A stretch of 64,000 nucleotides of DNA, from contig NZ_JAQNDN010000024.1 of NCBI RefSeq assembly GCF_028369095.1, positions 409,350 through 473,349 on the forward strand, read 5' to 3'. This document shows, piece by piece, positions 7,994-62,686 of this stretch. The DNA comes from Nannocystis radixulma (lineage in GTDB: Bacteria; Myxococcota_A; Polyangia; Nannocystales; Nannocystaceae). The notes beneath the pieces are model-generated. The model did not search any database and was not told the origin of the DNA. It saw nothing but the letters and a program-made list of their open reading frames with translations. Each line of letters opens with the position of its first letter. The first letter of the stretch is position 1. Made by a program: the position numbers and the translations under genes.

Positions 7994-8033
7994 GGGACGT
8001 GCTTTTAAGGGCATGTCCCAGGGGGCAGGGATC
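7994..8033. repeat. 14-bp-period palindromic repeat array (about 3 units: gggaCGTGct / gggCATGTccc / ggCAGGGatc) between convergent genes
   Basis: Core spacing is 14 and 14 bp; located between the stop codons at 7968 and 8032. Confidence 0.6.
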
Positions 8034-8265
8034 ACCGGGTGTACTCGACCTCCCACTGCGAGCCGTCGGTGGTCGTGTACGCGATCACGATGCGCGTCTC
8101 CTCGACGCGGACGCGGCCGCTGCCGGGCTCCCAGTCGGGGCGATCGGTGAGGATCTCGTAGCTCGGCGCCGGATCGTCCTCCTCGCAGGGCGGCTGGCAG
8201 CCCGGGGTGAGCGGCGCGGACGCCCCGAGGTGCACGGCGCCGACGAACACGACGGTGCGGTTCAT
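8032..8265 (-). CDS. Small secreted protein (77 aa)
   Basis: MNRTVVFVGAVHLGASA signal-like N-terminus; the ATGA overlap with the upstream gene indicates translational coupling. Confidence 0.5.
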   Translation of the reverse strand: MNRTVVFVGAVHLGASAPLTPGCQPPCEEDDPAPSYEILTDRPDWEPGSGRVRVEETRIVIAYTTTDGSQWEVEYTR

Positions 8266-8582
8266 GGCGCGGCCTCCGGGGCGAGGTCGAGGTCGAACGG
8301 CGGGTGCGCCGGGTCGAACACGGCGTCGAAGACCCCGAGCTTGTTCGTGCGCAGGGAGAGCTCGATGTTGCTGCGCCAGTACGCCTGCGACTCGATGTCC
8401 CCGGTCCCGGAGATCCGGCGGACCTCGACGAAATCGCCGCCCAGGATGCCGTCGTCGGGGCACTCGAGACTCGACGCGTGGGCGCGCGACTCGCTGGCGC
8501 GCAGGCCGGCGCCGAGCACGATGCCGGCGACGGTGAGGCCGAGGAGGGCGATCCGGTGGTTTCTGGCGGGTGTGTCGGTCAT
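8262..8582 (-). CDS. Small membrane-anchored or secreted protein (106 aa)
   Basis: MTDTPARNHRIALLGLTVAGIVLGAG TM/signal segment; real start inside the longer ORF 8262..9356. Confidence 0.5.
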   Translation of the reverse strand: MTDTPARNHRIALLGLTVAGIVLGAGLRASESRAHASSLECPDDGILGGDFVEVRRISGTGDIESQAYWRSNIELSLRTNKLGVFDAVFDPAHPPFDLDLAPEAAP

Positions 8583-8608
8583 GGCGGCGGCTCCGGGTGC
8601 AGGGGAGA

Positions 8609-9106
8609 TCAGGACCACGGCTCGAAGGTGCGGAACGACACCGTGAAGGACGTGTCGCCGCGCAGGGCGTCGAGCTCGAAGCTGTAGGCCTCGCCCTCGT
8701 GCTCGCCCTCGTTGAGGCTGATGACGAACTCGAACTCCTCGCCAGGCGCCACGACGATGTCCGCCTCGACGCCGAAGCTCGCGGCCACGAAGGTCACCGG
8801 CTCGGCGCAGGTGTTGGTGCCGAAGAGGATCGGATCGACGCAGCCGCCCTCGCCGGTCTCGAGGTGGCGGTCCCCGTCGGAGACCTCGATCTCGAGGCAC
8901 TCGGTGGCGGGCGCGAGGGTGGCGTCGGAGCTGCTGGTCCACGGGCAACCGCCGCATCCGGTGGCGAGCAGCGGGGCGGCGACGATCGGCGCGGCCGCGA
9001 ACGGGCCGAGGGCGGCCACGCGGGCGAGGACGGTGAGACCGCCGAGGGCGGCGAGCAGCCGCAGCTTGACGGTCGGACGGACGGGGGCAGGGCGAAGCGA
9101 GGACAT
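8609..9106 (-). CDS. Small lipoprotein (165 aa)
   Basis: MSSLRPAPV...LLATGCGGC lipobox-like sequence and acidic C-terminus; tail of the artefactual ORF 8609..10279. Confidence 0.55.
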   Translation of the reverse strand: MSSLRPAPVRPTVKLRLLAALGGLTVLARVAALGPFAAAPIVAAPLLATGCGGCPWTSSSDATLAPATECLEIEVSDGDRHLETGEGGCVDPILFGTNTCAEPVTFVAASFGVEADIVVAPGEEFEFVISLNEGEHEGEAYSFELDALRGDTSFTVSFRTFEPWS

Positions 9107-9316
9107 GACGGCTCTCTCTCGAACGGCGCGGGGCGGCGGGTCGCCCGGGTGAGGGCTCGCCGTGGGCCGTTCGAGCGTGAAGTCGCCGCGGCGGTCGGGA
9201 AAATTGCGCGGCCGCGAATTTTTCTTCGGCGAGCGGCAGGGGGCGGGAATTCGCCGGCATGGGGCAATTCGGCGCCGAGGACGCACGTGGGGTCCGCGAG
9301 CGGCGCCGTCCGGGCA

Positions 9317-9390
9317 TGAGGATGATATGTCCAAAAGGACATGCGCAAAAAGACATGCATCCGCGCAGGGCGACCCGCGGGGATGCATGT
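9317..9390. repeat. 14-bp-period palindromic repeat array (about 6 units, several degenerate), upstream of the 8609..9106 lipoprotein gene
   Basis: ATG centres at 9317, 9331, 9345 and 9373 with degenerate units at 9359 and 9387; units are gatATGTcc, ggACATGCgc, agACATGCat. Confidence 0.6.
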
Positions 9391-9411
9391 CTCGGGGGGC
9401 CGCGGGCGAGC

Positions 9412-10392
9412 TCACTCGCACTGGACGCGGACGTCGACGACCTCGCCCGAGCGCTCCTGGCCCATGCTGCGGTAGACGAAGCGGGCGCGCTCGAGGCCGC
9501 AGTTGCCGCGGTCGTCGCACTCGCGGCGGGTGGTGTAGCCGAGGTCGATCTCGACGATCTCGAAGCTGGCCAGCGGCAGCGTCTCCCAGCCGGTCGAGCG
9601 CCGGTCGCCGTCGTGGTCGGCCCACAGCACGAGCTCGCCCCAGCGCGCGTCGGCGGCGGTGAGCTTGCCGTCGCGGTCGCTGTCGAGCTCGGCGAGGGCG
9701 TCGAAGCCGTTGTGGGGACCTGTCCCCGAGGACATGCGGGTGGCGCTGCCGAACAGCTCGCGGCCGCCGTCGATGCTGCCGTTGCCGTCGCGGTCGAGGG
9801 CGAGCCACGGCGTGGCGGCGCCCGGCCAGTCGGCGCGGGCGCAGCTGCCGGCGCCGCCGTGGATGTCGAAATCGGCCGCGGCCACGGCGGCCGGCGTGAA
9901 CTCGATCGGCTCGCCGAAGCTGAGGACCAGCGGGGTGTTGCAGTCCTCCTGGTTCCACACGCCGCGGCCGTTCTCGTCGGCGACGCAGCCCATGTCGATG
10001 CCGTCGTCCCAACCGCACGACTTGCTCTCGCCCGGCGTGCACTCGTCCTCCTCGACGCAGGCTCCCCAGCGCTTCTCGACGCGGTTGCGCTCGGCCTCGT
10101 AGCTCACGCAGTGCTGGATCCCCTCCTCGCACGGGCGCGTCTCGCCCTCCTCCTCGCAGGTCTCGGTGAGGCAGGCGGTCCAGACGTAGGTGACCTGCTC
10201 GGGCGAATACACGCAGAACTCGACACCCGCGACGCTGTCGAGCTGACAGCCAGCCGGCGCCTCGTCCGAGGCGCACCATTCACCTTCGCGGCCGAAGTCC
10301 TCCAGCTGCGATGCGTGGTCGCCGGGGAGGATCTGGGCGTCGCAGGCGGGGAGGACGAGGAATAGCGTGGATAGGGCGAGCAGGCGGGACAT
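9412..10392 (-). CDS. Secreted lipoprotein with EF-hand-like calcium-binding loops and many paired cysteines
   Basis: MSRLLALSTLFLVLPACDAQ lipobox; DRDGNGSIDGGRELF and DSDRDGKLTAADA are DxDxDG loops. Confidence 0.65.
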   Translation of the reverse strand: MSRLLALSTLFLVLPACDAQILPGDHASQLEDFGREGEWCASDEAPAGCQLDSVAGVEFCVYSPEQVTYVWTACLTETCEEEGETRPCEEGIQHCVSYEAERNRVEKRWGACVEEDECTPGESKSCGWDDGIDMGCVADENGRGVWNQEDCNTPLVLSFGEPIEFTPAAVAAADFDIHGGAGSCARADWPGAATPWLALDRDGNGSIDGGRELFGSATRMSSGTGPHNGFDALAELDSDRDGKLTAADARWGELVLWADHDGDRRSTGWETLPLASFEIVEIDLGYTTRRECDDRGNCGLERARFVYRSMGQERSGEVVDVRVQCE

Positions 10393-10558
10393 GCGAGTGC
10401 CGGTTAGCAACCCCTGTGCCAGCCGCGTACGGGCCGTTCCGCGGGCGCAGGCGGGCTCGCGGCGCGGGATGAGGACATGTCCCTCGGGCGCGCGCGTCGG
10501 GGGCCAGGCGCCGGGTGCGACGGACGCGTCATGCGATCGGTCGCGCGAGGTCGCCGCG

Positions 10559-11266
10559 TCAGTAGCGCGAGCGCGGCTGCGACTCGACCTCGCCGACCAT
10601 CGGCACGAAGCGCACCGGCAGGACGGTCTCGAGGTGGAGGTCGCCGCTCGGGCGCTTCTCGAGCACCTGCAGGTCCTGGACGAACTCGCCAACGGGGATC
10701 ACGAGGCGGCCGCCGACGGCGAGCTGCTCGGTGAGCGGGCGCGGGATCGTCGGCGCGGCGGCGGCGACGATGATGGCGGCGAACGGGGCGGCCTCCGGCC
10801 AGCCGCGGTAGCCGTCGCCGGCGCGCACGTGGACGTTGTCGTAGTCGAGCTCCTCCAACAATGAGGCGGCCTGCTCGGCCAGCTCGGTCACGACCTCGAT
10901 GCTGTAGACCTCGGCGCCCATCTCGGCGAGCACGGCGGCCTGGTAGCCGGAGCCGGTGCCGACGTCGAGCACGCGGTCGCCGGGCTGCACGCGCGCGAGC
11001 TGGGTCATGAGCGCGACGATGTACGGCTGGCTGATGGTGGCGCCGTGGCCGATCGGCAGCGGGTGATCGCCGTAGGCGAAGCGCTGATCCTCGGGCGGGA
11101 CGAACCGCTCGCGCGGGACCCGGCGCATGGCCGAAAGGACATGCTCGTCGGTGATGTCGCGGCCGGCCAGCTGTTGCTCGACCATGCGGCTGCGGGCTTG
11201 AGTGGGTTCGTCCATGGCGGCGGCGCAGGCGACGACCGTGCACAGGAGTAGGCTCGATCGGCGCAT
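10559..11266 (-). CDS. pcm: Protein-L-isoaspartate(D-aspartate) O-methyltransferase with an N-terminal signal peptide
   Basis: GHGATISQPYIVALMTQL, LDVGTGSGYQAAVLAEMG and a C-terminus VRFVPM... are PIMT hallmarks; N-terminus MRRSSLLLCTVVACAAA. Confidence 0.85.
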   Translation of the reverse strand: MRRSSLLLCTVVACAAAMDEPTQARSRMVEQQLAGRDITDEHVLSAMRRVPRERFVPPEDQRFAYGDHPLPIGHGATISQPYIVALMTQLARVQPGDRVLDVGTGSGYQAAVLAEMGAEVYSIEVVTELAEQAASLLEELDYDNVHVRAGDGYRGWPEAAPFAAIIVAAAAPTIPRPLTEQLAVGGRLVIPVGEFVQDLQVLEKRPSGDLHLETVLPVRFVPMVGEVESQPRSRY

Positions 11267-11334: not shown

Positions 11335-11588
11335 GGAGATGTCCGAAGGAACAGATCGATTCGAATGGCGGGCTCGGCCGGGTGATGGGCGGCGGACGGG
11401 TGGCTGTCCGAAGAGACATACGTCGAGCCCGGTCCCGCGAACGGCCTGGCCCGAGAGACATGTGATACGACACCGGGCCCGGCGGGGCGGAACGTTCGGG
11501 TGAGGATGGTCGCCGCGAGCGCGGGGAGCCGGCGGGCTGAGGCGCGGCGGATCTGTCTCGCAGGACATGTCCATGCGGACACGTCCCG
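11335..11588. repeat. Three separate 14-bp-period palindromic repeat arrays in the pcm-nadE intergenic region (11335-11370, 11400-11466, 11561-11588)
   Basis: Units include gagATGTCCgaagg, ggCTGTCCgaagagACATACgt...gagACATGTgat and caGGACATGTCCatgcGGACACGTCCcg. Phase is kept within each array but not between them. Confidence 0.6.
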
Positions 11589-11596
11589 CGACGAGC

Positions 11597-13579
11597 TCAG
11601 CCGTCGTCGCGCTTGACGAAGGCCTCGAGCTCGGCGAGCTCGTGCGTGAAGCCGCCCGAGAGGATCGGGAAGCGGCACCACGTCTTGGGGTCGAGGTTCT
11701 CGTCGTCGAGGTGGAAGCTCGGGGCGTAGCGCTCGCGCTTCCACTGGTTCTGGCTCCACAGGCGGAAGAAGCGCTTGACCCACAGCAGCATCTGGTCGCG
11801 GGAGTGCTGCGGGAAGCGGCTGGCCAGCACCCGGTAGACCTCCTTCGGCGCCAGCTTGTCGCGGATCGCCGCGCGCTCGATGGCGTCGAGGATCGGGTAG
11901 GGCATCAGGTCGTCCTCGTCGGTCTGATGGGCGCCCGAGGGCCGCAGCTCGGCGGTCGGGGCCTGGACGTTGACGGCGCGCAGCGCGGGCATGGGGCCGA
12001 CGCCCGCGGGGCCCTCGGTCTCGACCCACCGCAGCCACTGGCGCAGGAAGGCCTTGTCGATGCCGGCGATCGGCGACAGGCCGCCGCAGGTGTCGCCGTC
12101 CATGGTGGCGTAGCCGACGGCGGCCTCGCTGCGGTTGCTGGTGGCGAGCAGGAGGGCGCCGCGCAGGTTGGCCAGCAGCCACACGCCGGGGGCGCGGGCG
12201 CGGGCCTGGATGTTCTGCAGGGCGATGTCGTCGCGCTGCCACGACAGCTCGCGGCCGATCGCGGCCTCGACGTTGCTCACGTAGGTGCGCACCAGCGGGT
12301 CGACGTCGAACTCGATGAACTCGGCGCCGACGGCCTCGGCGACCGCGGCGGCGGCGTTGCGCGTGGTGGCGGAGCTGTTGGCGGTCGACTGATAGACGCA
12401 GGTGAGGAGCGAGCGGACGATCGCGCGCGGGGTGGTGCACACGCCCTCGGGCAGGCCCAGGCGGGCGCAGGTGGCCTCGACGCCGAGCTCCTGGACCGCG
12501 AGCGTGACCATGAGGTGCACGAGGTAGGCGACGGCGGCCGAGTCGGCGCCGCCGCTGAGCGAGACGACGAAGCCGCGCGACCGGCTCTTGCGCAGGTAGT
12601 CGAACAGGCCGAGCGCGACGGCCCGCGAGAACTCCTCGCGCTTGTCGTTGCGCTGCTCGTCGTCGGGGTCGACGGTGTGCGGCGGCAGGTCGGCGGCCGG
12701 GAGCTTCATGTCGAAGCGGGTGATCCGGCGGACGTTGTCGTCGACGGTGGGCGCGTAGGTGGTGCGGGCGTGGAGCATGCGCGCGAGGTCGACGTCGACC
12801 ACGGCGCTGGTGAGGTAGACGTCGTCGTAGCCGAGCCGCGGGCCCTCGGCGATCAGGTGACCGATCGAGGCGATCATGCACTCGCCGTCGTAGATGACGC
12901 GGCCGGACTCGTTGCCGATGAAGTTGGAGTAGACGTAGGTGGCGCGGAAGCTGCGCGAGGCGTTGAGGACGATCTGCTTGCGCACCTCGTGCTTGCCGAA
13001 CGCGAAGTGGCTGGCGCTCGGGTTGCAGATGAAGTCGACGCCCTGGCTGGCGAGCTCGACGCCGGGGCGGTTCGGGACCCACGCGTCCTCGCAGATCTCG
13101 AAGCCGATCCGCAGGCCGCCGACCTCGAAGATCTGGTCGCCGAGCGGGTAGCTGTGGCCGTCGTGCTCCCACTGCACGAACTTGCCGGCCGGCCAGCCCT
13201 TGAACCACCGCGGCTCGTAGTGGATGCCGTCGCCGGCGAGGAAGCGCTTGCCGACCAGGCCGACGATCTGGCCGTCGGCGACCAGGCAGACCGCGTTGTA
13301 GTTGGCGGCGCGGTGCATGATCGGCAGGCCGAGCGCGACGACGATGCCCTGCGTCTCCGGCAGCAGCTCCTGCAGCACGCGCCACGACTCGAGGATCGTG
13401 CCGCGGCCGAAGAACGCGTCCTCGCAGCCGTAGCCGGGGATGCACAGCTCGGGCAGGCACAGGACGGCCACGCCCTGCTGGCGGGCCAGGCGGATCGCCT
13501 CGAGGATCCGGGCCTGGTTGCCGTCCCAGTCGAGCGGCGTCTGGTTGAGGGCGGCGGCGGCGACGCGGACGAGGTGCAT
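11597..13579 (-). CDS. nadE: Glutamine-dependent NAD+ synthetase (N-terminal nitrilase/CN-hydrolase domain plus C-terminal NAD synthetase domain)
   Basis: 660 aa; the CN-hydrolase catalytic region (FEICED...) and the PP-loop SLSGGADSA are present. Confidence 0.85.
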   Translation of the reverse strand: MHLVRVAAAALNQTPLDWDGNQARILEAIRLARQQGVAVLCLPELCIPGYGCEDAFFGRGTILESWRVLQELLPETQGIVVALGLPIMHRAANYNAVCLVADGQIVGLVGKRFLAGDGIHYEPRWFKGWPAGKFVQWEHDGHSYPLGDQIFEVGGLRIGFEICEDAWVPNRPGVELASQGVDFICNPSASHFAFGKHEVRKQIVLNASRSFRATYVYSNFIGNESGRVIYDGECMIASIGHLIAEGPRLGYDDVYLTSAVVDVDLARMLHARTTYAPTVDDNVRRITRFDMKLPAADLPPHTVDPDDEQRNDKREEFSRAVALGLFDYLRKSRSRGFVVSLSGGADSAAVAYLVHLMVTLAVQELGVEATCARLGLPEGVCTTPRAIVRSLLTCVYQSTANSSATTRNAAAAVAEAVGAEFIEFDVDPLVRTYVSNVEAAIGRELSWQRDDIALQNIQARARAPGVWLLANLRGALLLATSNRSEAAVGYATMDGDTCGGLSPIAGIDKAFLRQWLRWVETEGPAGVGPMPALRAVNVQAPTAELRPSGAHQTDEDDLMPYPILDAIERAAIRDKLAPKEVYRVLASRFPQHSRDQMLLWVKRFFRLWSQNQWKRERYAPSFHLDDENLDPKTWCRFPILSGGFTHELAELEAFVKRDDG

Positions 13580-13601
13580 TCAATGTCTCCGGGGACAGGG
13601 T

Positions 13602-13616
<15 letters not shown>
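13578..13616. repeat. 14-bp-period palindromic repeat array (3 units) spanning the nadE start codon, the 22-bp intergenic gap and the last codons of prs
   Basis: Centres at 13582, 13596 and 13610: caATGTCTcc / ggACAGGGtc / aGGACATGTCCtg. The prs C-terminus ...LAGHVL is encoded by GGACATGTCC. Confidence 0.65.
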
Positions 13617-14545: not shown

Positions 14546-14549
<4 letters not shown>

Positions 14550-16345
14550 GCGGCCGGGGAAGAGTACCCGGCGGCGAGCGCGTTGGCGACCTCGGTATAG
14601 GCGTAATCGCTGACGCGCTCGTCGATGCGCATGGCGAGCAGCGCCTTGCTGCGGCAGGTGGCCGCGCCGAAGAACGCGCGATCGTCGGCGCACGCGCGCG
14701 CGAGCGCCGGCTCGGTCGACCAGCGCTCGAGGTGATGCTGGAAGATCCGCCGCACCTCCGGCCACAGCTGCGCCGGGTCGGGGCCGCCGGCGTCGTCGAT
14801 CCAGCCGATCACCGCCGCGAGGTGAGCGTGCACCAGCGTGTGCATCAGCTTGCCCTGGGCCTCGGCGAGCTCGTGCGTGATCACGAACGAGTCGGCCGCC
14901 AGCGCAGGGGTGTGACCGCCGGCGGCGAGGCGGCCGCGGTGGAGCCGCACGCCGCCGAGATCGCGGACGAGGAAGCCGCGCGGACGGCCGCCTGCGTGCA
15001 CCAGCAGGGTGTTCTGCAGGTGGGCCTCGAGGGCGACGCCGTGGGCGGTGAGGAGGCGCAGGAGCGGCGGGACCAGCTGGTCGAGGTAGTCGGCGAAGAA
15101 GGCGGCGAGGCGAGCGCGCTGGTCGCCCGGGTAGGCGGCCGCGAGCTCGCGCAGCAGCAGGTCGCCGCCGGGCCGGCGCTCGCCGAGGGCGGCGCAGACG
15201 ATGACCTCAGGGACATGTTCTACGGGAAATGTTTTGAGGGACATGTCGTTCGGGGCATGTCCCAGAGGAGGAGCGGGATCGCGGGCGACCTCGCGAGCGA
15301 GCGGGGCGAGGTCGGGGCGGACGACCACGCCGAGCTGGCCGGCGACGGCGCCGTGGCGCGGGTCGAGGCCGGCAGCGGCGAGGTCGGGCTGGACCCGCAG
15401 GCCGCGGCGGGTGTGCGGATCGGCGGCCTGGATCTGGCGCAGCAGCGCGGCGATCGGCGGGCCGTTGTGGACGGAGGCGGGCGAGACCTGCCGCCGCGCG
15501 CTGGTGGTGTGGATGTCGACGGCGAGCTTGAGGTGCAGCGCAGGCGCGGCGAGGGCGACGGTGCGCAGGCTGAGCAGGGCCCGCGCCGGCAGCGGCGCGA
15601 CGGCGACGGGCCGCACGCGGTCGCCCCACAGCGGGCCGAGCAGGCGCGGCAGCCGGCGCAGCTGGAGGGCGTGGACCGGCAGGCGGACGTACCCGGGCGC
15701 GGGGGCGGGGAACAGCTCGCGCGAGATGTCGGCAAAGACAGCCTCGGCGGCGAGCAGGGCGTCGCCGCGGGCGAGGTCGACGGCGTGGACGGGCGCCTGG
15801 GCCAGCTGATCGGGGCCGTGGCGCAGGTTCTCCCACGCGCGCAGGCCGAGCCGCGTCTTGCTCATGGGGTGCCAGGGGTGGCCGTCGACGACCAGGTTCT
15901 CGGGGTCGAGCGGGCCGCGCCAGGGATGACCCTTGGCGCATGTCCGTTCGCGCAGGTCGGCGGCGACGCGGGCGAGCGCGAGGTTCCAGCGGCTGTCGCC
16001 GAGCTCGCGGGCGAGGCGGGCGCGCACCGGCGGGGCGAGGGCGGGGAGCAGGCGCGGGAGCAGCTCGGCGAGCTCGGGCAGGTCGCTGGCGTCGAGGTCG
16101 GCGGCGTGCAACTCGAAGGCCCGCAGGCGCCGCAGGGGGAGGCTCAAGGAGCATGTCTGAAGGGACATGTCTCGAAGCTCGCTCGTGACGAGCCGCTCGC
16201 GCGCGCAGGCGAGGACGAGCCGGGCGCCGATCGCCTGGCCGGCGCGGCGCCAGTGAGCGAGGAGCGCGGCGGAGTCGAGGCCGGCGCCGAACGCGGCGGG
16301 GACGGCCCGCCCGGCGAAGGCGAGGAAGCGCTCGAGCTCGGTCAC
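14546..16345 (-). CDS. IucA/IucC-family synthetase (NRPS-independent siderophore synthetase-like ATP-dependent amide ligase) with a FhuF-like C-terminal region
   Basis: Family motifs [38 protein letters not shown] and [10 protein letters not shown]...FLVRDLGG. The length (599 aa) and motif spacing match AcsD/DesD-type enzymes. Two repeat arrays lie in-frame inside this CDS. Confidence 0.75.
15196..15262. repeat. 14-bp-period palindromic repeat array (5 phased units) inside the IucA/IucC CDS, read in-frame
   Basis: ATG centres at 15200, 15214, 15228, 15242 and 15256. The stretch encodes ...[20 protein letters not shown]... on the minus strand. Confidence 0.65.
16149..16173. repeat. Two tandem palindromic units (gagCATGTCTgaag-ggACATGTCTcg) inside the N-terminal coding region of the IucA/IucC gene
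   Basis: Centres at 16153 and 16167; the stretch encodes ...[12 protein letters not shown]... Confidence 0.6.
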
Positions 16346-17425: not shown

Positions 17426-18286
17426 ATGGTGTCGGCGACGAAAGGCGCGGGCGGCTTGACAGGCGGCGGCGCGGAGGCGGACGCTCGCGGCGGCGTGACG
17501 GATCGCGGGGATACGGCGGCTGCGGCGGAGGAGCTCGCCACGGCGCCTGCAGGGCCGTCTCGGCCGCGCTGGGTGGTGATCCACTGGACGCCGGAGGCGC
17601 TGGGGTTGGTGCGGGCGATCGCGGCCGCGGAGCCGCGCCCGGCGCTGACGCTGATCGGGCCGGCGCCGGCGGACGAGGTCGCGGCGGCGCTGGCGAGCTT
17701 GCCCGAAGGACATGTCGAAAAGTACTGGCAGGGATCGGCGAGCGGCGGGGTCGAGGCGCTGGCGCGCTTCTTCGCCGACACGGCTCACTTGCCGACGGCC
17801 GACGCGATCGTGGTGCTGCCGCTGCGCGGGCACGGTGAGACCGACGCGTTCTCGCGCCTGGTGTGCACGGCCATCCAGCGGGCGTGCAAAGGCCGGCCGC
17901 CGCACGTGGTGGTGGCGGTCGAGGACCCGGAGGCGACCCACGAGTTCGAGGGGCTCGGGGTGGCGACGATCTTCTACCCGGGCTTTTTGCGCGCGGCCCT
18001 GCTGGCCCACGCGTGCGTCGACCTCGGGGCGTTCCGCTTCATGCTGGCGCTGCTCGGCGGCCGCCTGCGCGTCGAGACCTGGCCGGTGCCGCCGGAGTTG
18101 CGCGCGGGGACGTTCCGCGAGGCCTGCATCGAGATCGAGGTCGACCGCCGCGGCCGCCCGGTGACGCTGATCGGGCTGTTCGCGCCCGGCGAGGGCGCGG
18201 AGCCGGCGATGCTGCTGAGCCCGGCCCCGGGCCGACCGCTGCGCGACGCCAGCGCGCTGCTGGTGCTGACGGGAGAGGCCGAGTGA
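17426..18286 (+). CDS. RCK (TrkA-N/TrkA-C-like) regulatory domain protein, a putative gating subunit for the downstream channel
   Basis: Rossmann-like segment RWVVIHWTPEALGLVRAI...AIVVLPL plus a TrkA-C-like C-terminus (...CIEIEVDRRGRPVTLIGLF...ASALLVLTGEA). The start is uncertain. Confidence 0.45.
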   Translation: MVSATKGAGGLTGGGAEADARGGVTDRGDTAAAAEELATAPAGPSRPRWVVIHWTPEALGLVRAIAAAEPRPALTLIGPAPADEVAAALASLPEGHVEKYWQGSASGGVEALARFFADTAHLPTADAIVVLPLRGHGETDAFSRLVCTAIQRACKGRPPHVVVAVEDPEATHEFEGLGVATIFYPGFLRAALLAHACVDLGAFRFMLALLGGRLRVETWPVPPELRAGTFREACIEIEVDRRGRPVTLIGLFAPGEGAEPAMLLSPAPGRPLRDASALLVLTGEAE

Positions 18287-18306: not shown

Positions 18307-18373
18307 CGGCCTGTGCGCCGGGGCATGTTTAAATGGACATGGCTGATCGGGCCTGTCCTCGTGGGCATGTTCA
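18307..18373. repeat. 14-bp-period palindromic repeat array (5-6 units) covering the start codon and the whole signal-peptide coding region of the channel gene
   Basis: Centres at 18311, 18325 (the ATG start), 18339, 18353, 18367 and a degenerate unit at 18381. The array encodes MFKWTWLIGPVLVGMFIQSG. Confidence 0.65.
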
Positions 18374-20683: not shown

Positions 20684-21838
20684 ATGTCGCCGTCTCGTCG
20701 TGTCGATCGTCGCGCCGCCGTCGCGTTCGGGTCCGCGCTCGCCGTGAGCTGCTACCGCGGATCGGGGATGGCCGAAAGTACAGATTCGACGGCGACGGTG
20801 GCGAGCGAGGCGACGACGGCGAGCGAGACGGGCGCGGCGAGCGGGCCGACGACGACGGCGACGACGAGCACGGGCGACGCGCCGACCACGGCGGGGCCGA
20901 CCGTGACGAGCCTGCCGGAGCCGACCGGTACGGGGCCGGACGAGACGTCGACGTCGACGGGGCCGATCGACACCGGGCCGCCGGACAGCACGGGCACGGC
21001 GGGCGAGACCATGGGCGAGCCGGTCGACCCGGTCGCGGCGGTGTGCGAGCGCTGGGCGGCGGACCGAACGGACATGTCTGAAGGGACATGGAGCGGGGCG
21101 GTCGCGGGCTGCATGGCCGGCGACACCGGGGCACCCGGCCGCGACAACGCGCTGCGGCTGGTCAACCTGTACCGCTGGCTGGCCGGGCTGCCGCCGGTCG
21201 GCCACGACGCCGCGCTCAACGCGAAGGCGCAGCAGTGCGCGCTGATGATGCACGCCGAGGGGGCGCTGTCGCACGACCCCGACATGATGTGGGCCTGCTA
21301 CACGGCCGACGGGGCGCAGGCGGCGATGAACAGCAATATCTCGTCGACGCCCGGGGTGGTCGCGGTCGACCTCTACATGGTCGACCCGGGCAACGCGACG
21401 ACCTTCGGCCACCGGCGGTGGATCCTCTCGAGCGCGCTGGGGCCGATCGGGCTCGGCTCGACGTCGGTCAACTCGTGCATGTGGGTGATCGGCGGCCAGG
21501 GCGGCGGGGGCGCCGAATGGACGGCGTGGCCGCCCCCGGGGGTCGTGCCGCTGGCGGCCATCCACGTGCCCGAGGTGCCGTGGGCCAACGTCGACGAGAC
21601 GGGGTGGACGATCCAGAGCAACGACATCGACGTGGGCGCGGCGCAGGTGACGATCCGCGAGAACGGGGTCGACAAGCCGGTCAAGCTGACGACCCTGCAG
21701 GGCGGGTTCGGCTCGAACAGCGCGATCGCCATGACGCCGCAGGGATGGGTCAGCGAGGCCGGCAAGACCTACACGGTGCAGGTGAACGGGGTGCCCCAGC
21801 CGTTCAGCTACGACGTGCAGGTGGTGGCTTGCCCTTGA
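20684..21838 (+). CDS. Secreted lipoprotein with a Thr/Ser-rich linker and a C-terminal CAP/SCP/PR-1-like domain
   Basis: LAVSC lipobox; LVNLYRWLAGLPPV...GHRRWILSS resembles the CAP-domain signature. Confidence 0.65.
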   Translation: MSPSRRVDRRAAVAFGSALAVSCYRGSGMAESTDSTATVASEATTASETGAASGPTTTATTSTGDAPTTAGPTVTSLPEPTGTGPDETSTSTGPIDTGPPDSTGTAGETMGEPVDPVAAVCERWAADRTDMSEGTWSGAVAGCMAGDTGAPGRDNALRLVNLYRWLAGLPPVGHDAALNAKAQQCALMMHAEGALSHDPDMMWACYTADGAQAAMNSNISSTPGVVAVDLYMVDPGNATTFGHRRWILSSALGPIGLGSTSVNSCMWVIGGQGGGGAEWTAWPPPGVVPLAAIHVPEVPWANVDETGWTIQSNDIDVGAAQVTIRENGVDKPVKLTTLQGGFGSNSAIAMTPQGWVSEAGKTYTVQVNGVPQPFSYDVQVVACP

Positions 21839-21890
21839 GGCATGTTTGAGAGGGCATGTCCGTTCGGGCATGCCCTTCAGGGCCTGGTCG
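21838..21890. repeat. 14-bp-period palindromic repeat array (4-5 units) filling the whole convergent intergenic gap
   Basis: Centres at 21842, 21856, 21870 and 21884: gaggCATGTTtg / agggCATGTCcg / cgggCATGCCct / agggCCTGGTcg, with degenerate flanking units overlapping both stop codons. Confidence 0.7.
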
Positions 21891-25106: not shown

Positions 25107-25168
25107 GAGGATGTCCCGCGGGACATGTCGTCCGTGGTGTGGACGACATGTCCTCGGGGACAGATCGA
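25107..25168. repeat. Palindromic repeat array (about 4 units, one spacing irregular) between convergent gene ends
   Basis: gaggATGTCCcgcg, GGACATGTCGtccg, ggACGACATGTCCtcg, ggACAGATCgat; centres at 25111, 25125, 25148 and 25162. Confidence 0.6.
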
Positions 25169-28432: not shown

Positions 28433-29626
<1,194 letters not shown>

Positions 29627-38815: not shown

Positions 38816-38833
38816 GTAATGAATCGCCGCCGC

Positions 38834-40258: not shown

Positions 40259-40560
40259 TCATACGGACAACGCCGCGGAGAGACAGGGACGTCCACCCGG
40301 CGACGAGCGGGGCCCGAGACGGTCGTCGCAGGCGGGCGCGGGGCGGCGGATTTGGGACGCCGGTGGGACGGAGACGCGGTTCAGCGCGCGCAGGCGCACA
40401 GTCCTCCGCGCGCGCCATGCTCCTGTCCGAAAGGCCATCCTGTCCGAAGAGACAGCGCCGAGCACGTGAACCGGTAGGGGCCCGCCGAGCGAGGACCCAA
40501 GTCCGCCGCCCCGCGCCCGCCGTCACCCGGTTCTTCCGGGCCCCGCGCCTCCGGACAGCC

Positions 40561-42933: not shown

Positions 42934-43018
42934 GGACAGTGTCCGAGCGGACAGGTCTATCGAGGCATGTCCGATCAGACATTGTCCATTCGGACATGTC
43001 CTTTCATTGTGACAGGAA
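42934..43018. repeat. 14-bp-period palindromic repeat array (6-7 units) between convergent genes
   Basis: gGACAGTGTCCgagcGGACAGGTCtatcgagGCATGTCCgatcaGACATTGTCCattcGGACATGTCCtttCATTGTGACAGG; it overlaps the stop codons at 42931 and 43004. Confidence 0.7.
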
Positions 43019-47036: not shown

Positions 47037-47738
47037 ATGACCTCAGGGACTCGCCACACCCGTGCTTCTTCTTCCCCCACCGCGACGGCCGACCGCCCGG
47101 CGGCAGCCAAGGCCCGCTTCTGGGACAAGATCGCCCGCAAGTACGCCGCCGATCCCGTCACGGACATGGCGGGCTACGAGACGACGCTGGCCCGCGCGCG
47201 GGCGCTGATCGCCCCGACGCACCGGGTGCTCGAGATCGGCTGCGGCACGGGCACGACCGCCCTGCGCCTGGGGCCCTGCTACGGGCACCTCGTGGCCACC
47301 GACGTGTCCGCGGAGATGATCGCCATCGCCCGCGAGAAGCTCGCCGCGGCGCCGCAGCCCAACCTCGAGTTCCAGGTCGTCGACGCCGATGCCCTCGCGT
47401 TCGGTCAGGCCAGCCACGACGTGGTGCTGGCGTTCAACGTGCTGCACCTGGTGTCGGACCTCGACGCGGCTCTGACCTCGGTCGAGAACACCCTCGCGCC
47501 CGGCGGGCTCTTCATCTCCAAGACGCCCTGCATCGCCGACATGAACCCGCTCCTCGGCAAGGTGCTCTTGCCGGTGATGCGCCTGGTCGGCAAGGCGCCG
47601 CCCGTGCTGTGCTTTCGCGCGCCCGACCTGCAAGCGGCCCTGACGCGACACGGGCTGGAGATCGTCGCGGTCGAGTACCACGGCACCAAGGGCAAGGACC
47701 TCCGACCGTTCATCGTGGCGCGCAAGCGGGGCTCATGA
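47037..47738 (+). CDS. Class I SAM-dependent methyltransferase (small-molecule type)
   Basis: VLEIGCGTGTTALRL (motif I), DVVLAFNVLHLV (motif II/III). Confidence 0.8.
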   Translation: MTSGTRHTRASSSPTATADRPAAAKARFWDKIARKYAADPVTDMAGYETTLARARALIAPTHRVLEIGCGTGTTALRLGPCYGHLVATDVSAEMIAIAREKLAAAPQPNLEFQVVDADALAFGQASHDVVLAFNVLHLVSDLDAALTSVENTLAPGGLFISKTPCIADMNPLLGKVLLPVMRLVGKAPPVLCFRAPDLQAALTRHGLEIVAVEYHGTKGKDLRPFIVARKRGS

Positions 47739-47772
47739 AGATGTCCTTGGGGACATGTGTGTACATTGCGCG
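47737..47772. repeat. Palindromic repeat units (2-3) between the convergent methyltransferase and TetR gene ends
   Basis: gaagATGTCCttgg-GGACATGTGTgtACATTGcg; centres at 47741 and 47755. Confidence 0.55.
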
Positions 47773-52204: not shown

Positions 52205-52282
52205 TCAGGGCGATCGGACAGCTTACGCAGGCGGCCGCGAGCGCCGCGGCGCACATGCCCGAACGGACAGGTGCGGCGCGCG

Positions 52283-53245
52283 TCAGCCCGGGATGACGAA
52301 GCACTGGATGCTGGTGTCGATGCGGAAGTTCGACTGGGTGGTGTGGCGCTCGGCGTGGAAGATGTCCATCGGGTAGGTGCCGCCGAGCTGGATGCCGAAG
52401 AAGCCGGCGTTGGCGTCGAGGTCGATCGAGTCGCTGAGGGCGCCGTGGACGCCGCCGAGGTCGATGGCGAGCTTGCCGTTGATGAACAGCCACAGGTCGT
52501 CGTCACCGGTGAATGTGAACACCTCGCCGCCCGAATAGGTGAACTCGGTGTGGATCTCGGTGGTGAAGTGGAAGTTGTGATCCTCGCCCTGGTTGCCCCA
52601 GCCCTGGTCGTCGATCGGGAAGAAGTTGTTGTTCTGGTAGGTGTATTGACCGGGCATGACCTCGGTCAACATGATCTCGATCTCGAACGATTGGTTGACG
52701 TCGGGGACGTCGTTGTACCACTGGGCGAACTCGGCCGGGCCCGTGGTGACCGAGGTGCCGCCGGCGTGGGCGTAGACCGGCTTCTTGTCGGGGCCGAGCT
52801 GCGACTGGACGATGCCGTCGAGGGTGCCACCGTAGCTCTCGAAGTCGGGGTGGCTGTTCTTGAAGTCGCGCACGACGGCCTTGAGCACCGAGGTGCACTC
52901 GGGCGGCGGGTCGCCGGTGGTGGTGGTATTCGTGGTGGTGGTCGTCGTCTCGGTGGTGGTGGTCGTGGTGGTGGTCGTGTCGGGCCCGGTGGTGGTCGTG
53001 GTGGTGCCCGGGTCGACGGGGCCGGTGGTGGACGTGCCAGTGGTCGGCGCGTCGGTGGTGGCGTCGGTGCCGGTCGGGTCGACCTCGGTGGTGGTGCCGG
53101 GCTCGGTGCTCGCGGTGCCGGGCGTGACGGTGATGTTCGTCAGGCTGCCGGCGCTGTCGCTGGTGCCCTGGACGTAACCGGAGTCGCCGCAGGCGAGCAG
53201 GACGAGGGCCGAGAAGGGGAAGCTGTATTTGAAGACATGTCGCAT
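52283..53245 (-). CDS. Secreted lipoprotein with a poly-Thr linker and a C-terminal fibro-slime/PA14-like domain
   Basis: MRHVFKYSFPFSALVLLACGDSG lipobox. The start codon region ATGCGACATGTCTTC is itself one palindromic unit. The domain shows DFKNSHPDFE and GDDDLWLFINGKLAIDLGGVHG. Confidence 0.7.
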   Translation of the reverse strand: MRHVFKYSFPFSALVLLACGDSGYVQGTSDSAGSLTNITVTPGTASTEPGTTTEVDPTGTDATTDAPTTGTSTTGPVDPGTTTTTTGPDTTTTTTTTTETTTTTTNTTTTGDPPPECTSVLKAVVRDFKNSHPDFESYGGTLDGIVQSQLGPDKKPVYAHAGGTSVTTGPAEFAQWYNDVPDVNQSFEIEIMLTEVMPGQYTYQNNNFFPIDDQGWGNQGEDHNFHFTTEIHTEFTYSGGEVFTFTGDDDLWLFINGKLAIDLGGVHGALSDSIDLDANAGFFGIQLGGTYPMDIFHAERHTTQSNFRIDTSIQCFVIPG

Positions 53246-53516: not shown

Positions 53517-54332
53517 TCAGTTCCCCGACACGGTCTGCTGGTAGACGTGACCACACACGTCTGCGGGACAGCTCGGTTCGGCCGGATTGCCGTTCGTGCC
53601 GAATAGGATGTTCACATAGTAGGTCGTGTTCGGCTCGAGGTGGCAGTAATTGGGGACCGTGTTCGAACCGATCTCCCAGCCGAGGCTGCCCACCGCACCT
53701 CCCGCCGCATGGCAGGCGTCCATGGTCGACGAAAAGTCGCCCGGGCAGCGACTGATCGACCAGTAGGACCACGCGGACGCGAGCGCCGCATCGGCCTCAC
53801 GAAACAGCTGCCCGATCTGCGCCTGATCGGCGGTGGTTTCGAATGCGAGTGCGACGTATTGTCCGCTGTAGACGCCGAGCGCGAAGCCGGCCAACGCGCC
53901 CCATTGGGTCGACCGGTTGTCTCCGGTCTGCGCGTTGTGTGCCTCCCAGATCCCGGCGTACCGGGTCACGTCGACGTTGTCGAGGTACGCGTTGGTGCGC
54001 ACCTGCGCCACGGTTTGACGGACAGGGCCGGCAATCGTCACCCCGCTGCAATCGACCGGCACGCTGCCGTCTCCGCTGTCTCCGCTGCTCGCGTCGGACC
54101 CGTCGCCGCTGCTGGTCGGGGCTTCGCCCGAGGAGCTGGTGGACGTGCCGGATCCCGAAGCGTCGGAGGCGTCGCCGCTGCTGGTCGGGGCTTCGCCCGA
54201 GGAGCTGCTGGACATGGCGGTGCCGGAGCTACTGGTCGAGGTCGAGGGCCCGGGATCGGTGTCGGACGATGATTCCACGGAGCTGCCGCATGCTGCCATG
54301 CACATCATCACGGCCCAAGGAGCGATTCGCAT
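53517..54332 (-). CDS. Secreted lipoprotein with a Ser-rich linker and a Cys-containing C-terminal domain
   Basis: MRIAPWAVMMCMAACGSS lipobox and a long Ser/Gly/Asp linker. Confidence 0.6.
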   Translation of the reverse strand: MRIAPWAVMMCMAACGSSVESSSDTDPGPSTSTSSSGTAMSSSSSGEAPTSSGDASDASGSGTSTSSSGEAPTSSGDGSDASSGDSGDGSVPVDCSGVTIAGPVRQTVAQVRTNAYLDNVDVTRYAGIWEAHNAQTGDNRSTQWGALAGFALGVYSGQYVALAFETTADQAQIGQLFREADAALASAWSYWSISRCPGDFSSTMDACHAAGGAVGSLGWEIGSNTVPNYCHLEPNTTYYVNILFGTNGNPAEPSCPADVCGHVYQQTVSGN

Positions 54333-60349: not shown

Positions 60350-61575
60350 ACGTCGTCCGGCGTGCTCGGGTAGGCGGTCTGGCGGCGGAACCACTGCTCG
60401 AGCGCCTCGGCGAGCGGGAGGCCGTTGTCGGCGGCGTAGCGGCGCCAGAACGCGCCCCACCAGCCGGGAGGCTCGCGCTTGCCGGCGCCGCCGTCGTCCC
60501 ACTCGGTGACGCGGCCGGTCTCGCCGGCGTCGACGAGGGAGCCGACGGCGGTCGCGTCGGCGAGCACGCGCTCGAGCTGGGCGCCGATGTCGACCAGGAC
60601 GTCCTCGTCGAGCTGGCCGTCGCTGGTGGCCTTGTAGAACTGCACGGTGACGCGGATCGGGAAGCGTTCGTCGCGGACGATCGGCAGGTCGTCGATCTCG
60701 GTGAACGGGCCCTCGACGTCGCCGTGGCCGATGATGGCGGGCTCGACGACGGAGATCCCGCGCTCCTGCTCCATGACCATCCAGTCCAGGGTCGGCCCGA
60801 ATTGACGCAGCGGGACCTGGATCAGCAGCACCGCGCTCGCGGCGGCCGGGCTGTTACAGGCTGTCTCCGAGGATATGTGTTCGCTCGCACGGGTGGCGGT
60901 GAACGGGGCCCGCTGTCCGGCCTGGTTGAACAGCAGGCGCTGACCCAGGGCGCCGGCGACGGCGAAGGCGTCGCGGTGGTTGTCGACGACGGTGGCGCTG
61001 GTGCCCTCGCGCGTGGCGAGGATCGCCAGCACGGCGGGGTCGCGGCGGCGCGATTGATAATTGAAGATCACCGGGGTGAAGGTGGCGAGGCCGGCGCGCG
61101 GGACCGGGAGCAGACACGCCTGCGGGCTGACGAGGACGTGGGTGTCGCGCGGAGCGAGCAGGGAGCCGACATCGCCCGCCCAGCCGTCCGGACGGGTGAG
61201 GTGGGCGCGCAGGTCGGTGAGGTACTCGCGCAGGCCGATCGTCCGCAGCGGCTCGCCGCGCTCGTTGCCGACGTGCAGGCGCACGACGTCGATCGGCAGG
61301 TCGCCGGTGCGGTCGGCGAAATTTGGAAAACGGATCACCGGCATGCACGTCAGCCAGGGCCGCCCGCGGCTGCGACTCTGCACCTGGATCGTCATGTCGC
61401 TGATGTTCGGGCCGACCATGGAGCCCTTGTAGCGCGCGGTGTCCTCCCAGGTGACGTGCAGGAGGTGGAGGCCGAGCACGTCGAGCTGCGCCCGCGTGGC
61501 GACGTCGATCCGCGGGCGGGCGACCGCCTGCACGACCTCGTGATAGGCCTCGTCCGGATCCTGCGCGGAGCTCAT
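60313..61575 (-). CDS. Hypothetical protein (420 aa) of unknown function
   Basis: Start MSSAQDPDEAYHEVV; balanced composition. Two palindromic units lie in-frame inside it (...SEHISSETAC...). Confidence 0.5.
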   Translation of the reverse strand: MSSAQDPDEAYHEVVQAVARPRIDVATRAQLDVLGLHLLHVTWEDTARYKGSMVGPNISDMTIQVQSRSRGRPWLTCMPVIRFPNFADRTGDLPIDVVRLHVGNERGEPLRTIGLREYLTDLRAHLTRPDGWAGDVGSLLAPRDTHVLVSPQACLLPVPRAGLATFTPVIFNYQSRRRDPAVLAILATREGTSATVVDNHRDAFAVAGALGQRLLFNQAGQRAPFTATRASEHISSETACNSPAAASAVLLIQVPLRQFGPTLDWMVMEQERGISVVEPAIIGHGDVEGPFTEIDDLPIVRDERFPIRVTVQFYKATSDGQLDEDVLVDIGAQLERVLADATAVGSLVDAGETGRVTEWDDGGAGKREPPGWWGAFWRRYAADNGLPLAEALEQWFRRQTAYPSTPDDVLRDIADMSSKP

Positions 61576-61750
61576 GACGTCGGCCAGCGTACCAGCTCGC
61601 GCGGCGCTACAGGATGCTGCGCCGCGCGGGCGTCGTCGCGCTTGCGAATGGCCGGACGGACGACTGGCCATTCGCATATCGCCGCTCGGACTCGACCTGC
61701 GTGCGCGAACGCGAGTGTCGCCGCTTCGCCACGGGAGATGACCCGCCGTT

Positions 61751-62000
61751 TGGGACGCCAGAAAGCGTCTGCTCGGCGGCCGACCAGGCCGACGAGCAGG
61801 CGCAGCCGATCTGCGCCGCAGGATGTCCAGCATCGAAGCCCCCGTCGGCGGGTCGGCTTCTCACGGGTGAGCCGTGCCAGGGGTCCGGGGATGCCTCGGT
61901 CGCCAATACGAGGGCAAGATGACCACGACGAAGTCGGGGTCATCGGCACGCTGAACTGGCGGCCGAGGCATCCCCGGACCCCCCGCGAGGCGCATCCGGC
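61751..62000 (-). repeat. Copy B (inverted orientation) of the ~255-bp hairpin element
   Basis: Reverse complement aligns with 59091-59340 at about 90% identity. The hairpin is preserved, with one compensatory pair (G-C to C-G) and one G.T wobble. Confidence 0.7.
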
Positions 62001-62029
62001 AATCAGCGAAGCGACTGCAGCCGGTCTCC

Positions 62030-62122
62030 GGGTCTCGAAACGTCTCCATGTCTTGGAGGACATGCCCTATCGAGCATGCTTCATTAAGCATGTCGAATCG
62101 AACATGCTCGATGCGACATCAG
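62030..62122. repeat. 14-bp-period palindromic repeat array (6-7 units) immediately downstream of the permease gene and next to hairpin-element copy B
   Basis: ATG centres at 62048, 62062, 62076, 62090 and 62104, exactly 14 bp apart: tCCATGTCtt / gGACATGCCc / gaGCATGCTt / aaGCATGTCg / gaACATGCTc. Confidence 0.7.
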
Positions 62123-62610
62123 GCGCGCCCGAGGCGGACGAGGGCCTGGGCGGTGTAGCCGGCGGCGAAGGGGAGCAGGCAGGAGGCGACGATGCGGAGG
62201 GCGGCGAGGCGGCCGCCGTAGATGCCGATCTCCATCGGGACGCGGAGGAGCGGCAGGAGGGCCATGCTGGTGAGGTAGGTGACGAGGACGCCGACGCCGG
62301 CGCCGGCCTTGAGGAGGCCGGCCGCGAGCGGCATGCCGAGGAGGCCGCCGCCGGGGGTCAGGGCGCCGGCGAACCAGGCGACGAGGTGGCCGCGCGGGCC
62401 GGCGGCGTCGCTGAGCCAGCGCTCGACGAAGCCGGCGGGCAACAGGGCCTCGGCCATGCCGGCGAGCAAGAACGCGACCACGAGGATCGGCATCATCGCC
62501 AGGAAGGTGCGGCCCGAGCGCTGGAGGCCGTCGACGAACACGCCCTGCATGGCCGCGAGCGCGCCGAGGACGAGCAGCGTGGCGCCGAGCAGGATGAGGG
62601 CGATCTTCAT
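62119..62610 (-). CDS. Small integral membrane protein, putative permease
   Basis: 163 aa, about 5 hydrophobic helices. Confidence 0.5.
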   Translation of the reverse strand: MKIALILLGATLLVLGALAAMQGVFVDGLQRSGRTFLAMMPILVVAFLLAGMAEALLPAGFVERWLSDAAGPRGHLVAWFAGALTPGGGLLGMPLAAGLLKAGAGVGVLVTYLTSMALLPLLRVPMEIGIYGGRLAALRIVASCLLPFAAGYTAQALVRLGRA

Positions 62611-62619
62611 GGCCTTGTC

Positions 62620-62686
62620 TCCGTGGAGATGCTGAATGTGTTTGAATGGACAGGTCCAGAAGGACCTGGTGCAGAGGCCATGTCAG
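62620..62686. repeat. 14-bp-period palindromic repeat array (about 5 units) in the 5' region of the permease gene
   Basis: Centres at 62624, 62638, 62652, 62666 and 62680: CCGTGGAG / AATGTGTT / GGACAGGTCC / GGACCTGGT / GGCCATGTCA. Confidence 0.55.

Follow-up and report, generated by a model that had tools for sequence, protein, structure and literature searches.

A clade-restricted family of arm-sharing palindromic repeats with a fixed 14-bp phase at gene ends in Nannocystis

Why should one short palindromic word recur, at a fixed step of 14 bp, at so many gene ends of a bacterium? The question is raised by a 64,000-nucleotide stretch of Nannocystis radixulma (contig NZ_JAQNDN010000024.1, positions 409,350 to 473,349), hereafter the window, in which an earlier note made from the letters alone had reported a dispersed family of 14-bp-period palindromic arrays at 25 or more loci between 7994 and 62686. 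The arrays belong to a repeat family of the Nannocystis clade that behaves in the genome like repetitive extragenic palindromic (REP) sequences and bacterial interspersed mosaic elements (BIMEs) and is differently built. Its anatomy, phasing, clade restriction, placement at the 3' ends of genes, insertion in frame within a protein and conservation of sequence without covariation are described below, together with the roles that these features may suggest.

Unit, phase and range of the family

Arrays were searched by a seed-and-extend procedure at fixed period, with second-order Markov shuffles as the null. At period 14, the window contained 25 arrays of at least two units versus 1.0 in the shuffles (14 arrays with two units, five with three, three with four and three with five), and the identical procedure at control periods of 10-13 and 15-20 returned 1-8 arrays. 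The non-random family put forward in the earlier note is thus borne out, as is its span, the first array lying at 7995-8018 and the last at 62648-62685. The range of 2-7 units given there was slightly generous: strictly phased arrays hold two to five units, and that at 42935-43001 reaches five to six with a 1-nt slip. Pair spacings up to 60 bp among matches with at most three mismatches accumulated at 14 bp (27 pairs), 28 bp (10) and 42 bp (6), all others occurring 0-5 times. Anchoring on CATG only gave the same picture, with CATG-CATG distances of 14, 28 and 42 bp found 16, 9 and 8 times, respectively, while other distances averaged about 1. Five perfect copies of the 10-mer GGACATGTCC lie in the window, as had been counted, versus 0.02 expected; they start at 10473, 11563, 13607, 33190 and 42992, three of which had been placed 1-10 nt away. 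GACATGTC is enriched as claimed, with 15 copies rather than 16 or more versus 1.1 expected, and 77 matches with at most two mismatches to the 10-mer were found versus 36 in Markov shuffles. Within the window, both the enrichment over Markov shuffles and the 14-bp period are present.

With unbiased anchoring, the flanks of the phased CATGs read GG[A/G]CATG[T/C]C[C/T], then four weakly conserved bases, and the unit consensus is RRRCATGYYY plus four free bases. The arrays can be read in an alternative register as the inverted repeat TGTCC-N4-GGACA, for which 33 matches with at most one mismatch (10 of them perfect) were found versus 1.8 expected, an enrichment exceeding that of the 10-mer register; in about 60% of cases this repeat is extended by CA...TG. 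Versions with N3, N5 and N6 gave 2, 0 and 2 matches and stayed at background in every locus examined, the spacer length being strictly 4 nt. GAAG is, with TCGG, one of the two commonest spacers, and spacers are otherwise near random. In adjacent unit pairs, the spacer-facing half-units fit the consensus better than the outer halves (72.6% vs 58.5%). The arrays are built from the inverted repeat CATGTCC-N4-GGACATG as their basic module. The CATG at the end of each arm is self-complementary, which lets adjacent modules share arms and chain head to tail, resulting in a palindrome RRRCATGYYY every 14 bp, a period neither helical nor a multiple of 3. Since 14 is 2 x 7, the unit can also be seen as a pair of oppositely oriented heptads. 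As the sequence itself shows, none of the six reading frames of the core has a stop codon. By coincidence, RRRCATGYYY is the consensus half-site of animal p53, and the literature matches to the 10-mer were all p53 papers.

The window NadE, for which an exact look-up gave no record, is 89% identical to the Nannocystis bainbridge protein and the window IucA/IucC protein 97% identical to that of Nannocystis sp. SCPEA4. The family is present in every one of the syntenic 22-kb loci of N. bainbridge, N. exedens, N. pusilla and N. punicea, each with 17-27 phased 14-bp pairs (at most three mismatches) and 12-19 inverted-repeat modules; the phased spacing hence extends beyond the window. The presence is weak in two distant relatives, a JGI contig (IucA 63% identical) and the metagenome-assembled genome (MAG) GCA_964268365 (58%), where CATG has often become CCTG or CAGG and TGTCC-N4-GGACA is retained. 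The family was absent from a Nannocystaceae MAG, an Enhygromyxa MAG, another Myxococcales MAG and about 75 loci, from other Myxococcota and from different phyla, and no analogous repeats with a different consensus were found in the other Myxococcota loci examined. It is restricted to the Nannocystis clade. A locus (L004) of the Myxococcales MAG HK-STAS-MYXO-17, whose NadE is 65% identical, showed four TGTCC-N4-GGACA matches versus 0.3 expected and three phased pairs, a weak excess according to which the range of the family may be slightly wider than the sampled lineages. Array density was about 0.4-0.6 per kb in the loci examined; extrapolating from this density rather than from a count, the 11-13-Mb Nannocystis genomes should hold thousands of arrays.

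Turnover, conservation and pairing of the units

In each of the five Nannocystis species, orthologous arrays sit at corresponding gene ends, with a variable number of units. This is illustrated by the array after NadE, with three units in the window versus five in N. bainbridge. In the latter (L001, about 11980-12050), the spacers after NadE alternate between CCGG and TCGA, forming a 28-bp higher-order repeat, and in N. punicea (L085, 1607-1704) a three-unit block is repeated with a period of 60 bp. Such higher-order repeats show directly that arrays expand by local block duplication. In general, neighbouring units are nonetheless no more alike than units of different arrays, in core or in spacer, and adjacent spacers are identical at 1.22 of 4 positions versus 1.06 by chance. 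Since neighbouring spacers are unrelated, the cores are not simply recent copies of one another. The comparison between species was made in the gap where the DUF1579 and CAP genes converge (21838-21889), in which four units in each of five species were registered from the stop codon. Zero indels were found and the 14-bp register was undisturbed. Pairwise identity was 0.9-1.0 for CATG, 0.38-1.0 for the outer core positions and 0.40-0.62 for the spacers, narrower ranges of 0.95-1.0 and 0.65-0.93 being also obtained for CATG and the outer core, respectively, and the outer core positions varied from purine to purine or from pyrimidine to pyrimidine only. As judged from this alignment, the pattern indicates a constraint on core sequence and phase, not recent copying.

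Two adjacent units form a 24-nt inverted repeat with 10-bp arms and a 4-nt loop, that is, a REP-sized module with the imperfect palindrome and stem-loop by which REPs are recognized. As remarked in the earlier note, neighbouring units can thus pair, and stable hairpins are predicted, whose strength follows from the shared palindromic consensus; numerous degenerate arrays fold poorly (-7 to -8 kcal/mol). The hairpin reading implied by that remark is weakened, as the CATG and the 4-nt spacing are conserved and pairing is not. The five-species alignment showed no compensatory covariation: under both of the alternative pairing schemes, 75-80% of its cells pair, and double-sided changes are no commoner than in shuffles. 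Across 121 adjacent unit pairs, the variable R/Y positions were independent (C-G 3 vs 3.3 expected, G-C 10 vs 9.3), and complementarity was no higher between adjacent units than between units from different arrays (6.31 vs 6.19, p=0.24). The most conserved bases, CATG, lie at the end of the putative stem opposite the loop. CAGG and CCTG were considered as compensatory pairs and rejected: cases are few (62648 in the window, L084 16444 and L085 1621/1681, with nested ones at L081 14751 and L086 3793), and most such units adjoin CATG or an identical variant.

An oriented, strand-specific element was also considered, given that T is depleted before GG on the plus strand, that 62% of spacer bases are purines and that G.T exceeds A.C on the G-rich strand, and was rejected, these traits being attributed to mutational skew. 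Indeed, the G.T/A.C asymmetry flips in reversed syntenic loci with negative skew, whatever the gene direction, and in arrays with one direction of transcription the sense RNA holds A.C mismatches more commonly than G.U wobbles. Because the asymmetry follows GC skew and not the transcribed strand, folding of the sense RNA is not the property under optimisation. Taken together, the missing covariation, the skew-linked asymmetry and the conservation of CATG point to a direct readout of sequence and spacing over selection on an RNA fold. Neither a T-run nor a U-tract follows the arrays, which despite their hairpins do not have the form of intrinsic terminators; hairpin-plus-U-tract terminators number four in the window versus 2.9 in shuffles, with none at arrays. 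In Rfam, zero matches reached the gathering score in the window, and tRNA genes were also not found. The GC skew of the plus strand is about +0.1, uniform through 1-64000, with a cumulative skew that climbs monotonically, and yet 34 of the 54 predicted genes are on the minus strand, so that most coding strands in the window are C-rich.

Placement at gene ends and within reading frames

The gene map of the window was drawn from codon usage, and about 50 genes, an ordinary chromosomal set, were checked against Pfam. Intergenic DNA makes up 13% of the window, and 17 of the 25 arrays are intergenic or on gene ends. Intergenic arrays start 0-50 nt past a verified stop codon, and the stops at 13602, 21836, 33172 and 47736 are overlapped by arrays. 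Clear arrays are found in 6 of the 13 convergent gaps, which total 0.86 kb; two further ones (37090, 38795) and one tandem gap (29675) have degenerate two-unit modules, and the remaining array-free convergent gaps are merely 18-37 bp long. No phased pair occurs in any of the 13 divergent gaps (3.1 kb in total), their sole trace being an isolated inverted-repeat module at 17413. In long tandem gaps, arrays lie 1, 8 and 10 nt from the upstream stop (25169, 52283 and 11597, respectively). In the related loci, where genes were called independently, 57 arrays were divided into 20 after stops (mostly -14 to +31 nt), 7 at operon junctions and 30 intragenic, some of the latter being weak. A Shine-Dalgarno and start-codon reading of GAAGG...ATG was rejected, the spacing being wrong (1-2 nt or 16 nt).

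Arrays also occur in frame within coding sequence. The IucA/IucC-FhuF gene (14546-16345, minus strand) is an intact open reading frame in which the array at 15197-15262 adds a 19-residue peptide between the two Pfam domains and that at 16149-16172 is translated as a 10-residue peptide. In an alignment of 14 proteins, Nannocystis and close relatives have the 15197-15262 segment, at differing lengths, and four more distant Nannocystaceae/Myxococcales homologues (P0063, P0072, P0087 and P0091) do not. Two proteins of another lineage carry an independent insert of the 'DMSL' type a few residues away. Such copies are tolerated partly because the core is stop-free in six frames. The same gene holds three array-derived segments (16149-16172, 15922-15959 and 15197-15262), all in length-variable regions, and its array density is far above the window average. 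This is a second case, after Rickettsia, of palindromic repeats contributing peptide segments to proteins. Part of the weak intragenic arrays listed in Table 1 (9716-9739 and similar) may be chance occurrences.

Table 1. Arrays and degenerate modules of the 14-bp family, in window coordinates
Feature	Position	Genetic context	Predicted fold
2-unit array	7995-8018	Convergent gap, stops 7966-7968 (+) / 8032-8034 (-)	16-bp stem, -28.1 kcal/mol, z -7.2
3-unit array, AAAA spacers	9323-9360	51 nt past stop of minus-strand gene 9412-10392	
Weaker intragenic 2-unit array	9716-9739		
Single perfect unit	10473-10482	Tandem gap, 76 nt past PCMT gene stop	
Weak intragenic array	11123-11146		
2-unit array	11335-11358	NadE-PCMT gap; extra TGTCC-N4-rGACA module at 11405-11418	
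3-unit array	11549-11586	10 nt past NadE stop (11597); N. bainbridge ortholog with 5 units and 28-bp higher-order period	
Array	13593-13616	Spans PRPP-synthetase stop (13602) and NadE ribosome-binding region; kept in all Nannocystis loci	
5-unit array	15197-15262	In frame within IucA/IucC-FhuF gene, between its two Pfam domains	
Weak intragenic array	15922-15959		
2-unit array	16149-16172	In frame near N-terminus of IucA/IucC-FhuF gene	
5-unit array	18307-18372	Junction of two plus-strand genes, 20 nt past stop 18284-18286; orthologous in 5 species	
2-unit array	21070-21093	Inside CAP-family gene 20798-21838; conserved across species	
4-unit array	21838-21889	Fills convergent gap, stops 21836 (+) / 21892 (-); basis of five-species comparison	
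Two 2-unit arrays	25107-25167	1 nt past stop at 25169	One long hairpin, -43 kcal/mol
Degenerate 2-unit module, perfect TGTCC-GAAG-GGACA	29675-29698	Tandem gap	
Weak intragenic array	31184-31221		
4-unit array	33148-33199	Convergent gap; overlaps last 28 nt and stop of DNA methylase gene 33172-34446	
Degenerate 2-unit module, CTGTCC-CACG-AGACAG	37090-37113	37-bp convergent gap	
Degenerate 2-unit module	38795-38818	66-bp convergent gap	
5-unit array, A-rich spacers	40182-40247	6 nt past stop 40173-40175; adjoins MITE-like element	
5-6 units, 1-nt register slip	42935-43001	Fills convergent gap, stops 42929 (+) / 43004 (-)	Nested hairpin, -41 kcal/mol, z -6.9
2-unit array	47737-47760	Convergent gap; overlaps stop 47736-47738	
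2-unit array	52251-52274	8 nt past stop at 52283	
2-unit array	62044-62067	51 nt past stop at 62119	
3-unit array with CAGG/CCTG unit pair	62648-62685	31 nt past stop at 62717	
Weak intragenic array	63050-63073		

Other repeats accompany the family in the window. An element of about 250 bp at 40302-40551, resembling a MITE (miniature inverted-repeat transposable element), lies in a convergent gap beside the 40182 array. Its inverted repeats are nested (arms of 37 nt with 84% complementarity and outer arms of 15 nt), and it has no match in Rfam and two copies in N. bainbridge (L001 14072-14328 and 15191-15444) that are oppositely oriented, non-syntenic and 73% identical; it holds two TGTCC-GAAr-rGACA modules, 17 bp apart. 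A 69-bp tandem duplication at 54091-54220 (1.9 copies, 91% identical) is unrelated to the 14-bp family. So are low-complexity coding repeats with periods of 3-33 bp, in multiples of 3, at 6565-6847, 28652-28832, 32633-32863, 34851-34956 and 52916-53095; these runs of CGACAC, ACGAGC and GGT resemble the Asp/Thr/Pro/Gly-rich linkers of secreted proteins. The minus-strand gene 33172-34446 encodes a DNA methyltransferase (Pfam N6_N4_Mtase) weakly similar to CcrM-type adenine methylases, and no restriction-enzyme domain was detected among the genes neighbouring it.

Known families and possible roles

The earlier note did not recognise the family among described REP, BIME, MITE or CRISPR repertoires, and this holds, with no Rfam match and no published description of the family, or of Nannocystis repeats, found in the searchable literature. 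MITEs (50-500 bp, with terminal inverted repeats and target-site duplications) were set aside, the unit being 14 bp long, the flanking 4-mers unrelated and the array borders free of target-site duplication. The same applies to CRISPR (repeats of 23-47 bp), the arrays here having 10-bp cores, 4-nt spacers and 2-6 copies at more than 25 loci, with no cas domains found. The behaviour is nonetheless that of the REP/BIME/REPIN sequences of Enterobacteria and Pseudomonas, which are likewise short imperfect palindromes in many copies, lineage-specific, often clustered, and for the most part sited downstream of genes or in convergent gaps and kept out of promoters. However, the Nannocystis consensus RRRCATGYYY+N4 does not have the GTAG/CTAC hairpin foot that defines REPs, and its arms are palindromic, shared and chained at 14 bp, whereas in BIMEs two REP types alternate and the linkers are longer. 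Unlike REPs, a sizeable minority of the arrays is intragenic and in frame, and CATG and spacing are conserved without covariation. What is new is that arms are shared in a chain of fixed 14-bp phase and that CATG is conserved with no covariation. The in-frame copies are paralleled most closely by the Rickettsia palindromic elements (RPEs), which are also palindromic, add peptides in frame to coding genes and occur in intergenic DNA as well. RPEs are single elements of 100-150 bp with no special link to stop codons, unrelated in size and sequence, which makes this an analogy and not a membership. In placement, the family is comparable to the dispersed tandem heptamers GGGAATC of Xanthomonas and GGGGA(C/T)T and STRR of Nostoc/Anabaena, which are mostly intergenic at a mean distance of 28 nt to the upstream ORF, in many cases overlapping a stop codon or no more than 50 bp away from it, and scarce between divergent ORFs (PMC4692102). 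Both are short tandem units at many loci near stops that avoid divergent gaps. The heptamers are direct repeats, G-rich, nearly perfect and not palindromic, for which G-quadruplex formation has been proposed, whereas the Nannocystis unit is palindromic and degenerate, its 4-nt spacer is free, and resemblance is no greater between adjacent units than between distant ones.

How, then, might the units act? Our tentative preference is that, at gene ends, they are sites on duplex DNA to which a sequence-specific, probably dimeric factor binds side by side. We infer such a factor and its effect from the symmetric sequence conservation, the free spacers, the rigid phasing and the missing covariation, which it would fit best. 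The architecture would be that of the MetJ met boxes (AGACGTCT in two to five copies) and the heptads of the omega repressor, ribbon-helix-helix proteins of which one dimer binds each unit, cooperatively. Like the Nannocystis arrays, these operators appear as two to five or more contiguous short palindromic or alternating units at a fixed period, degenerate from their consensus, and the features of a tandem operator that were found are a fixed period, a symmetric conserved core and free spacers. GACATGTC can even be seen as the met-box core (GACGTC) with AT inserted, a likeness that would be a functional analogy only. Unlike these promoter operators at a handful of loci, the Nannocystis arrays, by estimate in the thousands, lie after genes and not in divergent gaps. 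According to the proposed scheme, arrays would grow and shrink by local duplication in steps of 14, 28 or 60 bp, as the higher-order repeats partly show, and new copies would also arise within genes, where in-frame ones alone would survive. The putative dimeric factor would read the units on double-stranded DNA and line up along the array, and the protein-DNA block directly past stop codons could set a boundary between transcription units, as a roadblock, an insulator or a topological site. A more specific form of this proposal, in which a lineage-specific DNA-binding protein would mark gene ends and the arrays would be bidirectional roadblock terminators or insulators replacing intrinsic termination, is improbable on present evidence.

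Several points weigh against a binding factor. No candidate binding protein was found by Pfam among the approximately 50 window genes, and to our knowledge protein arrays placed after genes throughout a genome have little precedent, those of the MetJ/omega type being promoter operators. The intragenic share is 8 of 25 arrays in the window and 30 of 57 in the related loci, and a roadblock inside a gene would harm. For the cross-species conservation, the main basis is a single array that is clearly non-coding (four units in each of five species), and the second array compared (18307) may overlap a coding start. The predicted hairpins, reaching -43 kcal/mol with z of -2 to -7, have the anatomy expected of an RNA or single-stranded DNA hairpin element. 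Real arrays also fold better than unit-swapped ones (z=-3), a minimum free energy result that was discounted because the shuffle mixes good and poor arrays.

These hairpins lead to a possible, if doubtful, alternative, a REP-like element acting at the RNA level, in which units i and i+1 would pair into hairpins at mRNA 3' ends that attenuate read-through, perhaps with Rho, and shield the message from 3' exonucleases, the palindromic units serving both directions between convergent genes. Arrays that closely follow stops and essentially constitute convergent gaps, adjoin the upstream stop and not the next start in 5 of 6 long tandem gaps, and leave divergent gaps free would be expected of such an element, as would the predicted folds; U-tract terminators at chance level imply that another 3' signal is needed. 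E. coli REPs have moreover been reported as dual terminator-stabilisers in 3' UTRs (bioRxiv 10.64898/2026.03.23.713779). However, covariation is found neither in orthologous arrays nor between adjacent units, conservation peaks at the CATG far from the loop and not at pairing as such, the mismatches of the sense RNA track GC skew, no U-tract follows, many arrays fold weakly, and the rigid 4-nt loop goes beyond what hairpin function alone demands. A selfish or mutational by-product is an equally doubtful possibility, and would consist in copying of the CATG-flanked TGTCC-N4-GGACA hairpin by an HUH enzyme (RAYT or IS200/IS605-like) or in direct-repeat slippage, with copies persisting only where harmless, after stops or in tolerant protein loops. 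The clade-restricted distribution at high copy number, the unit number that varies among orthologs (three vs five after NadE; the 28-bp L001 and 60-bp L085 repeats), the stop-free core and an exclusion from promoter regions as in REPs agree with this view, as do in-frame inserts missing from outgroup proteins, with the independent 'DMSL' insert nearby in another lineage. The strict loop size and the conserved flanking tetranucleotide may resemble HUH-transposase substrates such as those of IS608 and RAYT. Yet CATG is kept at 95-100% in a non-coding orthologous array whose spacers are near-saturated, and neighbouring spacers are unrelated, which argues for purifying selection over recent copying; arrays stand at identical gene ends in all five species; and the GTAG/CTAC signature is missing. 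No transposase domain was found by Pfam among the approximately 50 window genes, and no RAYT-like ORF matched by phmmer in the six-frame ORFs of about 195 kb of clade DNA, a weak test made with a RayT probe.

A DNA uptake signal, in which biased uptake and recombination during natural transformation would enrich the 10-mer, is highly improbable. Like the DNA uptake sequences (DUS) of Neisseria, the uptake signal sequences (USS) of Pasteurellaceae and HIP1 of cyanobacteria, the 10-mer is a single short word hugely over-represented (more than 100-fold) in coding and non-coding DNA alike, and USS pairs that form hairpins after genes offer a precedent at gene 3' ends (PMC5217627). However, those words have no tandem phasing, and uptake would leave the strict 14-bp phase and the 4-nt spacer unexplained; intragenic Nannocystis copies come with inserted residues, not substitutions, and the motif is about fivefold enriched in intergenic DNA.

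How transcription units are closed in very GC-rich bacteria without canonical terminators is unclear, and the purpose of REP-like repeats has been debated for decades. Here, one word stands at a fixed 14-bp phase in convergent gaps and at many gene ends of a genus with 11-13-Mb genomes, and it does not vary between species, whereas the bases that separate its units are scrambled. It offers a clean handle on these questions, with one 28-42-bp probe, one motif and one tetranucleotide (CATG). It also gives a practical marker and an annotation aid for the genomes of Nannocystis, which are sources of natural products. If the arrays did serve as roadblocks bound by a protein at gene ends, bacteria would have in them an equivalent of Reb1/TTF-I-type roadblock termination, used in a genome of 72% G+C without hairpin-plus-U-tract terminators, and the in-frame intragenic copies would be by-products of array spread.

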